From: Sphaerodactylus townsendi
Taxonomy: Eukaryota
DNA: 64,000 nt
Direction of reading: 5' to 3'
Assembly: GCF_021028975.2 (NCBI RefSeq)
Contig: NC_059428.1
Coordinates: forward strand, 45,322,001 to 45,386,000
The position numbers and the translations under genes were made by a program. The notes beneath the pieces were generated by a model. That model ran no database searches, was not told where the DNA came from, and saw only the letters and a program-made list of their open reading frames with translations. Shown piece after piece: positions 14,900 to 62,310 of this stretch; position 1 is the first letter of the stretch, and each line of letters opens with the position of its first letter.

Positions 14900-15680
14900 G
14901 GACTGCGCTTGTACAGGGGAAGACTAACAAGTTTGTATTGGAGCTCCTGAAGATCAGGGCGCCCATCCCCCTCCTCCCCAGAGCCAAAGGTGGGAATTTT
15001 CCAACTTCATGGTCATATGAGAGAAGTGAGGGAGGTGCTCATCCCTCAGTTCTTCTTTTGCTGCCGCAATTGAAAGATGTTCTTTCAATTCTGTGACTCT
15101 TGTGCTCTTCCTGAGGTGATTTCTTCTTTGAGGAAATGGATTCATGGAAGAGACCAGCTCTATACAAGAAATGTTTCACTTGTGGAATGAAAATGGCAAA
15201 ATTTGACTGGTATAAATTGCCTTTTGTGCCTTTCTGTAAGCATTGCTCCCAACTTATTCCCAAGGTTAGATAGGTTAGGGCTTCCTGTCTGAAGTCCACT
15301 GTTTATGACCGCTCCCTGGCTCCTGCTACACCAGGGAAAGAAAGTGTGTCAGTGTGAATGCAGAATTTGCCACCAGCAGCCAGTCATCCTAATACAGAAA
15401 GACTGTACAGTCCTTAAGTGTCAAATAAGATGTCAGCGTAGACATACATTTTGTGAAAGTTCTAGGGGCTGTGGCCAAACCAAATGGGAGAGCCATGTAG
15501 TCGTAGCTAATGTCTCCGGAATGAAAGCATAAGTAGTGTCTACACTCCTCCTTTATTGCAATATGAAAGTAGCATCTTTTAAGTCCAGAACCACAAACCA
15601 GTCATCAGGCTGAAGCAAAGGAAGCATGTTTGCCAAAGACAGCATTCAAACCTTCCTCACTCTTAAGTGTTTTTAAGGGT
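14900..15680 (-). mobile_element. Degenerate DIRS-type retrotransposon RT fragment
   Basis: Minus strand gives DDWFVVLDLKDA(Y)FHIAI near 15560-15612 and a decayed Y.DDWLLVA near 15369-15395. Confidence 0.7.
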
Positions 15681-53713: not shown

Positions 53714-54524
53714 AGTGTGTGAGCTTTTTGTAGCAATTACACAACAAAATAAAACTATCTTAGGCAGATTCTGCATGGTCCAAAAACAGCCGTATGAAAA
53801 CGGTGTATACCCTTTTACACCGTTTTCACACCACTGTTTTTGGCCCATACGGAATCCGCCTTAGACCAGAAAAACAGAAGAATTTCAAGCAGATGCTTTG
53901 ATGAATAAGTCTACCACAAATTATGTTTCTTGCTATTCTTTCTGTGTCTGTGTCAGCCATCCTCATGAACAGAGCTGGAGCACTTGCACAATACTGTTAC
54001 AACAGACTCTTATATTCTAAGCCACTAAAAGATCTGCTGTAAGAAGAAACTAGAAGGGAGATTCTTACCCCTTTCGAAATCATTCCCAGGGAACCATTTA
54101 ATTCATGGAAATGTCGAATCCCTACATGACTGAAGTATAGGGATAGCATTACATAACAGCATTACACACATTTCAGATTGTCCCCTTGGTACAACATTTA
54201 CGAATATATGTAGCGAAAACTCAGATGCTTCCCAGGAAGAGTAAGATTCTGCAGAGGCAAGGGAAGCTGCTCTTGAATGTTCTTCAAACACTGAAGAGAA
54301 TTAACAGTGCTTAAGCGTACATTCTTATCTTCATGTCAGTCCTCAGAGTTCTTTCCTCAATTTCTGTGATTTCAAGTAAGTACAACTGTTAACAGAAATT
54401 ACAGGAATCTGAGTTCCATCTTCTACTTTTTTATTCCCTGTAAGTTACAAACATAACACTCCCCATTGAGTCAGTATTGGTTTATTTCACATTCCACCTT
54501 GGTATTTTTCAGAACTGTCTATGT

Positions 54525-54661
54525 CCGTGGTGGCGAACCTTTGGCACTCCAGATGTTATGGACTACAATTCCCATCAGCCCCTGCCAGCATGGCCAATTG
54601 GCAGGGGCTGATGGGAATTGCAGTCCATAACATCTGGAGTGCCAAAGGTTTGCCACCACTG
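54525..54661. mobile_element. Palindromic hAT MITE, related subfamily
   Basis: Hairpin sharing the core actacaattcccatcagcc, with exact 8-bp TSD gtctatgt. Confidence 0.93.
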
Positions 54662-55706
54662 GTCTATGTCCATGCCCTTTTCCAATGAAATTTCATATCT
54701 ACAGATACTGATGTTCTGTGAGGATGCCAGCATCTCTGAGAATTTTCAGTAGCCTTAAAATTACAATTCTCAGCATTCCAATGGGAAATCCATCATATTA
54801 AATCAATCCTACTTTAACACCGCAAACATACTACCATTATTTCAATATTTACTTTTATGCCAATATGACAATATAGTGAAGATGAGTCCTAAGAGAGCTT
54901 TAAAGCAATCAATGCGTTCTCATTTTATGTGAGGTACTTTCCAGTTATCTTGTAGTATGCAGAATGGACTAGTGTTCTGTCTTTTAATTTTAAAAGAGTA
55001 ATGACTTATTTTGATCAACCTTGAAGAGCAGACTTTAGATAAACTCTCTAGAATGCTGTAGAAGGGAAACAGTCACAGATCCGATAATCAGACTTAGCTG
55101 AATGTGACTAATGTGTAGTTTACTTGGCAGTTTGAGCCAGTTACAAAGTGTAATCTGTTTAACAGAGCAACTTCCAAAGTGAGAATTCTGTGATGGTAAT
55201 TAGTTTGTATGTATATGAAAGACTTTGCTATGATGGAGCAATCATAGACTTAGAATGGATTGGGGTATAACAAAGGGCTAAAGATTTTCATATTGCCAGT
55301 TTATATAGGACACTAAGCAGTGCATAAGAATAGGGAATATTTATTTATTTAATTTATATTAGCTTTTTTAAAAAAATGGACATCAAGGCAGCTTACAGAC
55401 GATTCCAGGGTCAGTGATCTCCTATCCAGGCACTGACCAAACCCAGGCCTGTTTAGTTTCAGCAAAGTATTTGTCAGTGTGATCTAAGACCATTGACTTT
55501 AATGGATTTACATGAATCATATGTTCTCTGATCCCATTCTTGGACTCTGCATTTCTTTATTAAAAGAAGAGATACCGGGGATCAAGGCTTTCTAGAAGCC
55601 ACATTATCTAAGTCTTCCCTGTGGTTCTTGGTATGCAAAGGCCAGCTACTTTTGTTCTATATTGGGAAAATGTTTTGCATCTGTTTGGGGCATACTTGTT
55701 GCTGTA

Positions 55707-55918
55707 CTCTGTCTCACCAAAAGAAATAAACAAAATTATGACTTCATTTGCCACATGCTGGACTGTCTTTGGTTTTAGAATGCTCTGTTTGGGTCCTAGT
55801 GCCTACCCTGTTCTGTTAAGTAGGCACTAGGACCCAAATGGAGCCTTCTAAAACAAAGACAGTCCAGTGTGTGGTGAATGAAGTCACAGTTTCATTTTTA
55901 CCTTTTGGTGAGACAGAG
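55707..55918. repeat. Imperfect 212-bp hairpin (arms of about 100 nt, 13-nt loop)
   Basis: ctctgtctcaccaaaag...gggtcctagtgcctac pairs with gtaggcactaggaccc...cttttggtgagacagag. Confidence 0.9.
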
Positions 55919-56304
55919 GATAGTGAGTCTAACATTGCATTAGGCAAGGTGCCTTCCGCACATGCAAAATAATGCACTTTCAATCCACTTTCAAGCTGGA
56001 TTTTAGTGTGGAATAGCAAAATCCACTTTCAAACAATTGTGACAGTGGATTGAATGTGCATTATTCTGCATGTGTAGAAGGAGCCAAAGTTACCACTGAA
56101 TACACTGAAAGTTGCTAGTTGAAGTCCCAGTTCTGCTCAACCAAGGACTCAACCAACCAACTTGAATATCTATGTAGTCTTACCATCATGGTTGATGTCT
56201 ATCTTCTTGAATACAATTTCTGTGAACTCTTCAGGAGTTGTTTCTTGGTACCCTGTAATAGCCTGAACAGCCTGAAGAAGCAAAAATGGAAACTGTCAAA
56301 GTCT

Positions 56305-57050
56305 TAGAAAAATATAACTGGAAGGGATCTCAAGGGTCATCTGGTCCAACCTCCAACACAATGCAGAAAATTCACAACTACATTCTCCCCATTCCCCCAG
56401 TGACCACTATTCCAGGTGTAGATAAATGGGTTGGGGGAAGCCTTTAGGATTTCTAGGCAATCTATCCTGCAGGAAGATTCTTTCCTGACCCGAAAATGGT
56501 GATTTCCTTTGCTTTAAACCATTTTACACTGTTTTCACACCGCTGTTTTTGGCCCATGTGGAATCCACCTTATTGTTAGGAAGTTCTTCCTACTGTTTAG
56601 CTGAAAACTCTTTTGATTTAATTTCAGTTCATTGGTTGTAGTCCAACCTTTTAGGCAACAGAAAACAACTCTGCACAATCCTCTCTATATGACAACCCTT
56701 CAAATACTTGAAGATGGCTATAATTTCACCTCTCAGTTGTCTCTTCTCAAGGCGAAACACACCCAGCTCCTTCAGCCTTTCCTCATAGGACTTGTTCTCC
56801 AGACCCCTCACCATCTCTGTTGCCATCTTCTGTTCCAGTTGGTCAACATTTTTCTAAAACTATAGTGCCCAAAACTGAACACAGTACTCAAAGTGAGGTC
56901 TAACCAGAGCAGATTAAAACAATACCAGCATTTCACGTGATCTGTTGATGCAGCCCAAAACTGCATTTGCCTTTTTAGCCACCACATCACATTGCTGACT
57001 TGTGTACAGTGTATGGTCTACTAAGACTCCTAGATCCTTTTCTGCTGCCA
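56305..57050 (-). mobile_element. CR1 LINE 3' part, interrupted by the Gypsy element
   Basis: Minus-strand peptides [29 protein letters not shown] and [18 protein letters not shown] are typical of the CR1 ORF2 end. Confidence 0.9.
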
Positions 57051-57054
57051 AGCT

Positions 57055-57361
57055 TGTAAAGGATTCAATGGTGTTGATGTTCAGTACAGCCGCCTGGCCT
57101 TGACTGAATTCCATAACCCGGGCGATGGGCCAGCATCTGCGGCGGAGACTCTGATGGAGGCCTTATCTCTTCGAGAGAGATGAGAACTCCGTTCCCATGA
57201 GAAACCGGGAGGGGGGATGGGATGGACAGAGTTATAACCTGTGCTTCTGGCGGGAGACTTTATTCCTGCCACGTCGTGTACGTGAGCTTTCTAGGATGTC
57301 TGAATAAACGGTCTTTTACATCAAAAAGCCTTTTATTTCTGCTTCTATGGAATTCCTTACA
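57055..57361 (+). repeat. 5' LTR (TATAA at 57233, AATAAA at 57303)
   Basis: Direct repeat of 60985-61291, with 3 differences seen by eye. Confidence 0.95.
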
Positions 57362-60300
57362 TTGTGGCAGGAATCCTAGTTCATTTATCTTCCCAGTGTA
57401 GCGGACCTCTGGTGTCTCGGCATGGAGAGGTTGAATATTCCTGAACCTGTGGAAGGTGCGGTAGCCCCCAAAGAGGGCTCCGAGCTTTCCCTTATGGATT
57501 TGGAGGAACCGGCGGCGGAATCGGGTCTCATTGGTAACTCTTTCCCGGCCCTCGTATCAACACGAAGTCTTCCCTTACTCCGTTGGGACGAGGGATGAGG
57601 AAAGCGATCATGTGGACTTGCATGAGTCGTTTGGGCTTGTCTATGGATCGGCCTGTGGATCGGATACCTACCACGTTTCCGTGTGGTTACAAACCTCAGA
57701 TGCAACCTGTCGCGGAGGAGATGGGGCCTGACCACTTTTCATCGCGCGTAAACTCCAGGAGTCCACGTTGAACGATTCCTGGACTCAGATTTTGATGATG
57801 CTCCCAAGAATCCACCGTGGCATAGCACTGGGGCCCGCCCTAAGACCACCGTTAAAAGCCTGGACTATATCGGATTGGGAGGGTATCCGCATTACCAGCT
57901 TCCGATCGACCCCCCCAGATCCCGGATCAGCAAGCTGCATGAGGCGCCGATGGAGCCGCCCGGTGGACTGTAGTGCTGCATTCCGATGAAGAGGAATCCC
58001 GAAAGCCTGCTGCCTTCCCATCCGACCTATTTCCCTCCCGCCAAAGAGCCAATATGGGATGGTAATGACTGCAAGATGCCCAGGAAGCATGGGCCCGTGA
58101 ACGCCAGCCATGGAAGAGGAATGGAGCAGCTGCAGCAAGAGCTGAAAACTCTCGCAAAAGGACCCGGGAATAAAGCAGCGAAAGAAATCCAACCTGCACT
58201 GGACCGCGGCAAGATTTTGCAACGGCAATATATATGCAGAATCTATCGGTCCATGATAAGGTCCTGGAACACTCCAAACTGGACTTTAGAGTTGCCAACG
58301 CCAGCTGCGCATAGCTGGCGCGAAAGTGAACTAACTGCAGCTATTCAACGAGATGAACTGGCCAAACTGGAACGAGAGAAAGCAGCTCTTGCATCGCATC
58401 TAAGATGTCCTTGACTCGCAAGGAAGAGACTTAGCAGCCTTTGAAAAGGAGCTGAAGAAGCAGGGACAAGATGCCCCAAGCTGGAGTCCTCGCCGTTACT
58501 GGTACAATAGCCAACGCCAGAGAACGGCGCTTCTGGGTCCCCATACTCGCTGTGATTCGCCACCTTCCAAAGACGCGTGCTCCACTCAGAGCACCAGCGG
58601 CGCCGGGCGTCTGTGCTCTAGCACCTCCACTGATTCCGGCTCTGCGCCACCAATCCTGCGCAACCGGCCCCAGCTGGCGCCAGGGCCGGAGAGAGGAGAA
58701 GCATATTACAGACCTCCAATACCTGCCTCGCTTCGATGTGGGGACCGCTTCCAAACTCCCCTACTTCATCCTGCAACTCGATGCCCACATGGAGGACCTA
58801 TGACGATCTGTACCGGGTCTGAACGCCAAAATACGGGACATCGGGTTCCGTCTTGGATGGAGCGGCAGCCGACTGGTTTGTGACTCTTTTGACTGCAAGG
58901 GGAGGATACTCGCACGGTGCCTGCCTTCCAAGTTCTTAAGGGCTCGCTTCAAGATCCGGGTGCTGGAAAATGAAGCCATCCGCACCATCAAATCTATTCA
59001 GCAAGGCAACGCGCTCCTTTGCGAGTTTTGCCCGTGAATTTCGTAAAGCGTGACTGCCTCGAACTCTCCTGAGTGGCCTGAGCGCATGAAATGTGAATAC
59101 TTCGCAGGATGCCGTCGACGGCAAACTGCGAGGAACGGTGTTCCTTATTCCGGATCCTAATGCACTATTGCTGAATGGATCGAATTAGGATCTCAAGTGG
59201 CGTCGCCTCGTTTGGATTACACTCGCGGGGGGCCCATACCCAAAACCGCCGCTACTGACTCACCGCTCGACTGCATAAGCCAAGCTCCAGCAGCTCTGAC
59301 GGAAACCACCTCCGAGCGCCCGTCGCCGCTTGGGATTGTGTCTTTACCAAGGAGGACCGGGTCATCTAGCTGCCAACTGCCCGAAACAGAAGCACCGCCC
59401 GCTGCGCCAGCACTTAATCTGCTACAAGCCACCACGTGAACTGGCCGCCAACGGGGGCCTTCGCTCTAAAGGCGTTAGCCACTGGCTACACTCCAGAAGA
59501 AGCAGCGTTTGCCTCTTCAGCCCCATGGATATGGGTTCGATTTCAGATCGGTGGAGTGAAGGCAGCGCTCCCATTACGATTCAAGCGCATTCTGGCCAAC
59601 CCTTCGCTTAAGCACTCGTGATTATAGCCTCAGCCCTTGTAGATTCTGGGTGCTCCCATTTGCTTAAATCGCGGTCCCAAGTGGCGGAGGAACTTTGGAC
59701 TAGACCGAGTCCCCTAGCTAAGCCCATACCGTTCACTCCAAAATGGGCGCAGCCCTCTCAATGGCGAAGGACCGGCCAGTTCAAAACGTGCATAAACCGT
59801 TCTCCGCTTCGCGCTTCGACCATTGGGAGAAAATTAGTTTTATTCTGGCTCCAGTGGCCAAACACTCCATAGTCCTGGGCATGCCATGGTTGTTGCTGTA
59901 CCTAATCCAAAATTCATTTGGAAAGAAACGGATCTTAGAATTTACTGACCCTCCCGTGGAGAACACATGAATTGGGGAAACTCCCACTTAATGACATACA
60001 CCCCTGGCCCGTCCAGCGGGTTACGCAGCTCCAGTTGCTCGAATCTACCGGCATTCCACCGGCTTACCAAGATTTAGCCAGAGTATTTCCAGGAGCAAGA
60101 ATGCGATCAATTGCCACTCCCATAGAGACACTGACTGCAAATGTGATTACAGCCAGGGCCTCAACTGCCTAAGGGTAGAATTTACGCATGAGTCCCAATG
60201 AGGAGAAGGAACTTCGTGCCTTCTTAGACAAGAACCTTGCTTTCAGCTGGGTTCATCTGACGAAGCTACTAAAACATAATGCATGCTGCTCCTGTATTAT

Positions 60301-60984
60301 TTTGTTAAAAAAAGGACGGATCTTTAAAGGCTCTGTAACACGGATTACCGAGGACTCAATGCGGTTCTTGTCCAATAAATACCCTTTGCCTTTAAGCAAG
60401 GACCTTTTAGTATGCATTGGGCAAAAGGACTTATTTTACTAAGTTGGACTTAAAGAAGCTTACTACAGAGTCAGGATCAAGGAAGGCTATGAACATTTGA
60501 CTGCATTTAACACAAAATTTGGACAGTAATGAATACTTAATAATGCCATTATTCATTAAGTAGCCCCCCGGAGCTTTATGGCCCCTATCAACGAAGTTCT
60601 ACAGGATTTATTATACAAGGGAGTAGTGGTGTGCTTAGATGATGTTTTAATTTATTCACAAACCATGGAGGAGCCTGAAGCCTTGCTTCGGGAAGTATTA
60701 CACCGCTTTCTCAACAACTCCCTCTTTGCAAACCTTTCTAAATGTTGTTTTCACCAATCCTCCATCGACTATTTGGGCTACCGGATCTCTTCCGAGGGGC
60801 TAAAAATGGATCCTGCTAAGATTGAAGCAGTCCTCCAATGGCCTGCCCCTACCAATCGGAAGGAACTCCAGTCTTTCCTAGGGTTTGCTAATTTCTATCG
60901 TGACTTTATACCCCAATTCGCTGAACTGACTCTCCCACTCACAGACCTCTACAGGGGGAGAAGTTTGTCTTAAGGGAGGCAGAG

Positions 60985-61291
60985 TGTAAAGGATTCAGTG
61001 GTGTTGATGTTCAGAACAGCCGCCTGGCCTTGACTGAATTCCATAACCCGGGCGATGGGCCAGCATCTGCGGCGGAGACTCTGATGGAGGCCTTATCTCT
61101 TCGAGAGAGATGAGAACTCCGTTCCCATGAGAAACCGGGAGGGGGGATGGGATGGACAGAGTTATAACCTGTGCTTCTGGCGGGAGACTTTATTCCTGCC
61201 ACGTCGTGTACGTGAGCTTTCTAGGATGTCTGAATAAACGGTCTTTTACACCAAAAAGCCTTTTATTTCTGCTTCTATGGAATTCCTTACA
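60985..61291 (+). repeat. 3' LTR
   Basis: Direct repeat of 57055-57361, preceded by the PPT. Confidence 0.95.
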
Positions 61292-62310
61292 GCAAGTCTC
61301 AGACTCCTACTGCCAAGGCAAGTCTCCCCAATTCTATAGTTTTTCATTTGATTTTTCTTACCTAAATTCAGAATTTGGCATTATTGAAATTCATTTTGTT
61401 AGTTTTAGCCTAGAAGAAGAGTTTGGATTTATATCCCCCTTTTCTCTCCTGCAGGAGACTCAAAGGGGCTTACAATCTCCTTGCCCTTCCCCCCTCACAA
61501 CAAACACCCTGTGATGTGGGGCTGAGAGAGCTCCGAAGAGCTGTGACTAGCCCAAGGTCACCCAGCTGGCGTGTGTGGGAATGTACAGGCTAATCTGAAT
61601 TCTCCAGATGAGCCTCCACAGCTCAGGCGGCAGAGCTGGGAATCAAACCCGGTTCCTCCAGATTAGATACACGAGCTCTTAACCTCCTACGCCACTAGTG
61701 TTCCAGCCTGTCAAGATCATACTGTATCTTGACCCCCTCTTCTACTGTATTTGCTACCCCTCATCTGCAAATTTGATGAACATCTGTATTCCTTCATCCA
61801 AGTCAGATATTGAACAACACAAGGGCCAGGACAGATTCCTGAGGCACTCCACTTTTCACTCTTCTCCAAGAGGCTGAAGAACCATTAATAAGCACTGTTT
61901 GGATGCAATCTATCAATCAGTTATAAATCCAACTGACACTAATAAGATCCAAATCACATTTTAACCAACTTGTCAACAAGAATATCACAGGAACATTATC
62001 AAAAGCCTTATTTCAATTAAGATAAACTATGTCCACAGCAATCCCCTGATGCAACAAGATAGTAACTCTCTCATAAAAGGAGACATTGTTAATGTAACAT
62101 AACTTGTTTATGAGAAACCCATGCTGGCTATTAATAATCACAGTCATCCTTCCTAAAGGCCTGACTGTTGATTTGTTCTAAAATCTTTCCAGGTATACAT
62201 GTCAAACTGATTAGTTGGTAGTTACCTGGTAGTTACTTTTGCCCCTTCCTGAAGATGGGGATAACACTTGCCTACCATCAATGGCACCTCACTTGTTCTC
62301 CAAGAATTCT
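61292..62310 (-). mobile_element. Continuation of the CR1 LINE (RT region) with a nested SINE
   Basis: Decayed CR1 RT-like segments (SGVPQ.SV.GP.LFNI, KFADE) on the minus strand. Confidence 0.8.
61411..61696 (-). mobile_element. Squamate SINE nested in CR1
   Basis: tRNA-like head on the minus strand (GTGGCGTAG...GGTTTGATTCC) and (CTT)n tail. The same tail type occurs at about 8520-8605. Confidence 0.75.

Follow-up and report, generated by a model that had tools for sequence, protein, structure and literature searches.

In the fission yeast retrotransposon Tf1, the RNA's first 11 bases pair with a primer-binding site (PBS); the cut by RNase H falls between bases 11 and 12 (PMC7175516). A three-duplex 'pretzel' is also required in Tf1: sequence of the long terminal repeat (LTR) located behind the primer pairs with the PBS flanks on either side (PMC10085805). 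Published accounts present self-priming as a trait that Tf1/sushi elements commonly show, vertebrate members included (PMC7175516, PMC10085805, PMC6317226). It has been demonstrated for yeast Tf1, whereas in vertebrates it is only 'implicated' or predicted (PMC4600332, PMC6317226); in particular, for the vertebrate chromodomain-type Gypsy elements it was inferred from sequence in a 2001 study, which is cited here via PMC6317226 and PMC10085805. The sections of PMC4340606 and PMC2864245 consulted add nothing on vertebrates.

Here we describe a Gypsy element, likely of the Tf1/sushi group, that very probably primes reverse transcription with the end of its own RNA. It is located in a 64-kb stretch of the Sphaerodactylus townsendi genome; this whole stretch of 64,000 nucleotides is referred to below as the window. 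Like Tf1 and Tf2 of Schizosaccharomyces pombe, Tj1 of S. japonicus, Tosmo1-3, and Tcry1, the window element has an 11-nt complement between the RNA 5' end, here a predicted one, and a PBS behind the 5' LTR, apparently lacks a tRNA-type site, and encodes a chromovirus-type reverse transcriptase (RT) (PMC7175516, PMC4600332, PMC10085805). It differs from these elements in its sequence, its vertebrate host, and its short R-U5 region (100 nt from position +1 to the LTR end). Cleavage and priming have been experimentally tested only in Tf1. In a search of the open literature, with subscription journals, Repbase, and Dfam outside its range, the papers listed (in one case 20 of 2,318) include none on self-priming in a squamate element.

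Organization of the Gypsy element

The element occupies 4.2 kb and is bounded by two 307-nt LTRs, both of which begin with TGT and finish with ACA (Table 1). The LTRs are identical at 304 of 307 positions and align without indels; the three differences correspond to a divergence of 0.98% (Poisson 95% interval 0.2-2.9%). The hallmarks of Ty3/Gypsy elements are present, namely the TG...CA LTR ends, a polypurine tract (PPT), the gag-protease-RT order, and a Ty3-like RT.

Table 1. Positions of the features of the Gypsy element in the window
Feature	Positions	Strand	Evidence or remark
5' LTR (TGT...ACA, 307 nt)	57055..57361	+	pairwise match with 3' LTR
TATA motif, sole TATA[AT] in LTR	57233..57238	+	motif scan of LTR
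Initiator-like word, A at 57262 (predicted R start)	57260..57266	+	YYANWYY match
Predicted self-primer, first 11 nt of RNA	57262..57272	+	complement of PBS
'Pretzel' candidate segment, pairable with both PBS flanks	57282..57299	+	junction test
AATAAA poly(A) signal in R	57303..57308	+	motif scan
Primer-binding site, 2 nt behind LTR	57364..57374	+	complement of 57262-57272
Broken coding stretch upstream of gag	57428..57844	+	31% to gecko gene model P0002 residues 981-1135, E 3e-4 (weak)
gag (capsid, zinc knuckle) + protease, broken	58799..59788	+	32-35% to P0002 residues 4-329; Pfam on P0002
Reverse transcriptase	60013..60964	+	about 10 frame changes in 60146-60562; match stops ahead of RNase H
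Polypurine tract, adjoins truncated RT	60970..60984	+	purine run ahead of 3' LTR
3' LTR	60985..61291	+	second primer-word copy at 61192-61202

The broken gag, protease, and RT regions between the LTRs match residues 4-635 of P0002, a Sphaerodactylus gene model, and this match ends directly before the PPT. RNase H, integrase, and chromodomain are absent from the copy as assembled; in the nearest relatives RNase H and integrase are present downstream of RT. Without these two domains the copy as assembled is not itself autonomous, which qualifies the recently active family proposed in the preliminary description; 'recent' fits the LTR divergence of about 1%. In the interval 60955-60985, RT joins the PPT directly despite the 99% identity of the LTRs, as in a non-autonomous subfamily or after a post-insertion deletion.

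The frame changes of the RT region and one stop codon fall into a single patch with 73% identity to P0002, and the next 390 nt contain none. The patch looks more like uncorrected long-read error than decay. The age of the copy therefore cannot be read from the frameshifts, which on the same figures were not accepted as proof that it is long dead. Upstream of the capsid match, coding-like but broken sequence extends over about 1.4 kb (57422-58800); its start is like part of P0002, and it is possibly a long N-terminal Gag extension or an extra ORF.

No target-site duplication of 4-6 bp was found around the element, which is preceded by AAGCT and trailed by GCAAG; this bears on the insertion or assembly of this copy and not on the family. 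When 57030-57054 and 61292-61345 are compared, a short 5'-flank sequence (CTGCCAAG) is seen to recur in the 3' flank after some 20 nt, which suggests that the insertion site underwent a small rearrangement or contains a seam of the assembly. Integrase-independent insertion was considered as an explanation of the absent duplication and rejected, the flanks being unlike the PBS or PPT by eye. A BLAST comparison of the element flanks against the window found no empty-site copy, and there is no further copy of the element within the 64 kb.

Three palindromic, MITE-like inserts (53758-53865, 54527-54659, and 55702-55923) have arms of 50-74 nt that are 81-97% complementary, and a 58-nt piece recurs at 56515-56572. 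Behind the element, at about 61410-61700, lies what we take to be a Sauria-type SINE, and an RT-like fragment is found on the minus strand at 15362-15583.

Complementarity of the PBS to the predicted start of the RNA

The PBS (GTGGCAGGAAT), located 2 nt behind the LTR terminus ..CTTACA, is the exact reverse complement of ATTCCTGCCAC at 57262-57272. The duplex comprises 11 Watson-Crick pairs and one G.U pair (57273/57363), and the bases just outside 57262 and 57374 are unpaired. Both the exact complement and its beginning 29 nt after the first base of the TATAA box at 57233 had been reported in the preliminary description, and both are confirmed here. The initiator consensus is YYANWYY, and the usual distance from TATA to the start is about 30 nt. 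The LTR contains three YYANWYY words, and the sole one located 26-36 nt behind the TATA motif has its A at 57262, where the RNA start is predicted.

Variation within the lizard family

Of eight public runs listed, six contain the stretch; they come from three organisms and three studies, and none of them is recorded as RNA, which has no bearing on whether the family is expressed. We used a wide comparison, with four runs aligned to 57030-57520 and 40 of 66 variant rows listed, and a narrow comparison of three runs on 57222-57412, with 3679, 366, and 22 contigs. Since all aligned sequences are contigs, depth is not a copy number. The narrow comparison missed variants near the ends that were seen in the wide one, at 57244, 57379, 57385, 57399, and 57402.

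Fourteen places of the narrow interval vary (15 variant rows), and there are seven indel rows. Positions 57258, 57259, 57261, and 57274, which adjoin the primer arm, vary, and the variants at the first three of them remain pyrimidines. No variant was observed at the 22 arm positions, neither in the three runs on 57222-57412 nor among the 40 of 66 rows listed for 57030-57520. Taken alone, the invariance of the arms, 22 of 113 positions, is a weak signal (P = 0.081 for substitutions, 0.05 with indels), and the blocks 57275-57291 and 57344-57378 are equally free of variant rows.

Contigs of diverged subfamilies start aligning at exactly 57262 in all three runs (10, 5, and 2 contigs). Their unaligned ends contain a TATA motif at the same distance, and 8-9 of the 19 intervening letters differ, as counted by eye. 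The longest of these contigs differ from 57262-57361 by eight letters and four gaps. In two of the three runs the alignment of single diverged contigs breaks off just behind the PBS, at 57375 and 57376. No compensatory change between the arms was seen among the aligned contigs of the lizard family, where arms without a listed variant cannot reveal covariation.

Phylogenetic placement of the reverse transcriptase

Among solved structures, a 131-aa piece of the window RT is closest to Ty3. The best 60 of 208 PDB matches to P0002 include RTs of Ty3 and of retroviruses, and none of the 60 is a Tf1/sushi marker. The RT piece has no match in viral_contigs. The nearest database RT is that of gecko P0002 (79% identical), in agreement with the earlier attribution of the element to a lizard; it is followed by gecko and snake proteins with 60-64% identity. 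These neighbours, together with the Sauria-type SINE behind the element, point to a gecko as host.

Two trees were built from hand-picked subsets of 135 fetched proteins (129 columns). They contain no named Tf1, sushi-ichi, or V-clade reference, and their deeper nodes lack resolution. In the first tree (49 rows) the window RT belongs to a six-row clade (99/97) with four named rows, all squamate, and is surrounded by fungal, algal, fish, and frog elements, many of them with chromodomains. In the second tree (34 rows) an 18-row clade (99/98) is composed of the window RT, 15 squamate-named rows, and two unnamed rows, and six of the 17 other rows have a chromodomain (PF00385). The fish and frog rows lie outside the squamate clade to which the window RT belongs. 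The squamate Gypsy polyproteins compared (Sphaerodactylus P0002; Paroedura P0003; Crotalus P0113, P0115, P0117, and P0120; Anolis P0112, P0124, and P0126) belong to the same clade, several of them with a chromodomain, and have RTs 55-79% identical to that of the window; this comparison concerns the RT protein only.

The position of the window RT in a squamate clade with chromodomain-bearing members points to a Tf1/sushi chromovirus, which is the most likely assignment of the element. Non-plant chromoviruses constitute the Tf1/sushi group by definition (PMC6317226, PMC10085805), which makes membership of the window element likely. The LTR motifs given for Sushi elements are CNTNACA at the 3' end and TGTYANR at the 5' end (PMC3601003). 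The window LTR end CTTACA fits the former, and its beginning TGTAAAG deviates from the latter at one place.

The same geometry in distant relatives

A 17-sequence alignment used as a query yielded 79 metagenome and six viral loci, the metagenome scan covering two of 64 parts. A direct-repeat pair was found in 37 of the 85 loci, and the rule that both copies end with ACA kept 14 and dropped 23 of them. Five of the 14 have repeats shorter than 120 nt and were not judged, which left nine loci with LTRs of 473-1202 nt.

A perfect complement of 10-12 nt is found in four of the nine full-LTR relatives, beginning 1-2 nt past the LTR end: 12 nt in L005 and L010, 10 nt in L023, and, in L066, 10 nt in the 3' copy and 7 nt in the 5' copy. 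The complements of the other five are shorter: 9 nt in L039, 8 nt in L067 and L076, 7 nt in L077, and 6 nt in L062, the LTR end of which is doubtful. Of 300 control windows, none reached 10 nt and seven reached 9 nt. A TATA motif precedes the complement within the LTR by 33-34 nt in L005, L010, and L023; this distance is 42 nt in L066 and 50 nt in L039. In these relatives the complement begins at or beside an A that follows a pyrimidine run.

The PBS letters of all four matching relatives differ from those of the window. Moreover, L010 and L023 differ by one extra PBS base that is matched by one extra primer base, a compensated indel. The same geometry with different letters identifies the pattern as a trait of a wider group, kept through sequence change. 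The covariation between the R start and the PBS that the preliminary description had proposed as a check across family members is observed in four of nine distant metagenome relatives, and not as compensatory change inside the lizard family. The hosts of the metagenome relatives are probably fungal. A two-arm pattern search of metagenome_contigs gave no match.

A different arrangement is observed in L065, L067, and L076, which form one metagenome family: the partner of the PBS is located only 88 nt from the end of the LTR, there is no TATA in the 50 nt before it, and the pairing has an apparent one-base bulge. This priming geometry is atypical.

RNA folding and alternative explanations of the complement

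The predicted RNA fold of 57262-57400 has an energy of -40.2 kcal/mol (z = -5.0), and none of 200 shuffled sequences was as good. The inner nine pairs of the primer-PBS duplex have a probability of at least 0.93 with RNA starts at 57233, 57250, and 57262; the outer A-U pair is weaker (0.30-0.79), and a start at 57270 mostly abolishes the duplex. Since the duplex forms with the two upstream starts as well, folding does not fix the start site.

The latter result would also be expected if the pairing were structural, closing a hairpin of R, U5, and leader that masks the 5' poly(A) signal or has a role in packaging, while the RNA started elsewhere or the primer arose in another way. The minimum-energy fold is indeed one long hairpin in which AATAAA is paired. 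Five of the six paired variant sites in the upper stem, however, break their pair, so that the long hairpin is not what is conserved, and as a conserved structure it was rejected. Furthermore, the edge of the duplex coincides with the predicted +1 position and with the step in conservation, and likewise in unrelated sequences. We consider a structural role of this kind improbable. In the predicted fold, the segment 57302-57308, which contains AATAAA, is paired with the U-rich segment 57331-57337, and a variant at 57302 breaks one of these pairs; such pairing could mute polyadenylation in the 5' LTR.

We also searched for the flanking helices of the Tf1 'pretzel'. Two possible pairings adjoin each other, one of 57291-57295 with 57375-57379 and one of 57296-57299 with 57359-57362; together they form a 9-nt junction matched by 12 of 2000 shuffles. 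The energy of the leader-body duplex is unremarkable (46 of 1000 shuffles and 66 of 219 other windows as good), and variants at 57294 (64% of the summed depth in run X1) and 57379 (67%) break two of the five leader pairs. The strict junction test gave at most 6 nt in all nine relatives (L065 was used in place of L062, with LTR ends set by hand) and hence has no positive control. An alternative helix of 57282-57286 with 57380-57384 has no listed variant. A 7-nt pairing of 57291-57297 with 57373-57379 was rejected, since part of it lies within the PBS and two common variants fall in it. No Rfam match was found at 57000-57600.

A tRNA primer binding site generally starts with TGG and has a G at position 16, which pairs with C61 of the tRNA. 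An ordinary site of this type could begin at the TGG at 57365, 3 nt behind the LTR, or at 57362, from where the first nine letters presumably differ at a single position from a tRNA-Leu site of vertebrates; the complement within the LTR would then be secondary. However, none of the six 18-mers starting at 57362-57367 combines TGG with a G at position 16. The family conservation also ends after about 11 nt, since 57379 and 57385 vary widely and copies leave the alignment at 57375-57376, and the available accounts describe the Tf1/sushi clade as self-priming. A tRNA primer is thus very improbable. No tRNA genes were found within the 64-kb window.

Finally, a chance complement or assembly artefact is hardly credible and appears already largely refuted by the family contigs: for a fixed site, the formula gives 3.5e-4 as the probability of an 11-nt complement in the 307 nt upstream, and although such a complement occurs empirically at 354 of 63,580 window positions (0.56%) and the RT stretch has a dense frame-change patch resembling uncorrected long-read error, the primer word is present in both LTRs, and both arms are covered, with no listed variants, by contigs of three organisms from three studies.

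Proposed mechanism and implications

Tf1-style self-priming, as proposed in the preliminary description, remains the best reading of the locus in view of the chromovirus placement, the matching geometry, and the covarying relatives. By analogy with Tf1, Pol II would start at A57262, nucleotides 1-11 would fold back onto 57364-57374 and close a loop of about 90 nt, and RNase H would cut between nucleotides 11 and 12. A 3' end would thereby be set free 2 nt from the end of the LTR, and it would prime minus-strand DNA and be extended into U5. As the copy described here cannot supply RNase H, and integrase is absent as well, it would either have been mobilised in trans by an intact family member or have inserted first and lost the 3' half of pol later.

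The self-priming mechanism itself is not new, and the window element is a further Tf1/sushi case that will not surprise a specialist. With self-priming already described for the whole group, it is an ordinary new member. In mammals, 3' tRNA fragments target endogenous retroviruses (PMC7472051), and a tRNA-free PBS would place elements of this type beyond the reach of such fragments. Tf2 is controlled by the choice of the start site (PMC5341516), and tRNA-free self-priming would expose such elements to control of this kind. A far-reaching and rather unlikely possibility is that this young, very abundant gecko family represents a tRNA-free amniote element escaping tRNA-fragment silencing, the copy in the window belonging to a non-autonomous subfamily, the primer of which would be cut and extended in trans. 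As a young and abundant squamate family with a sharp predicted +1 position, it would make a convenient vertebrate test case for self-priming.
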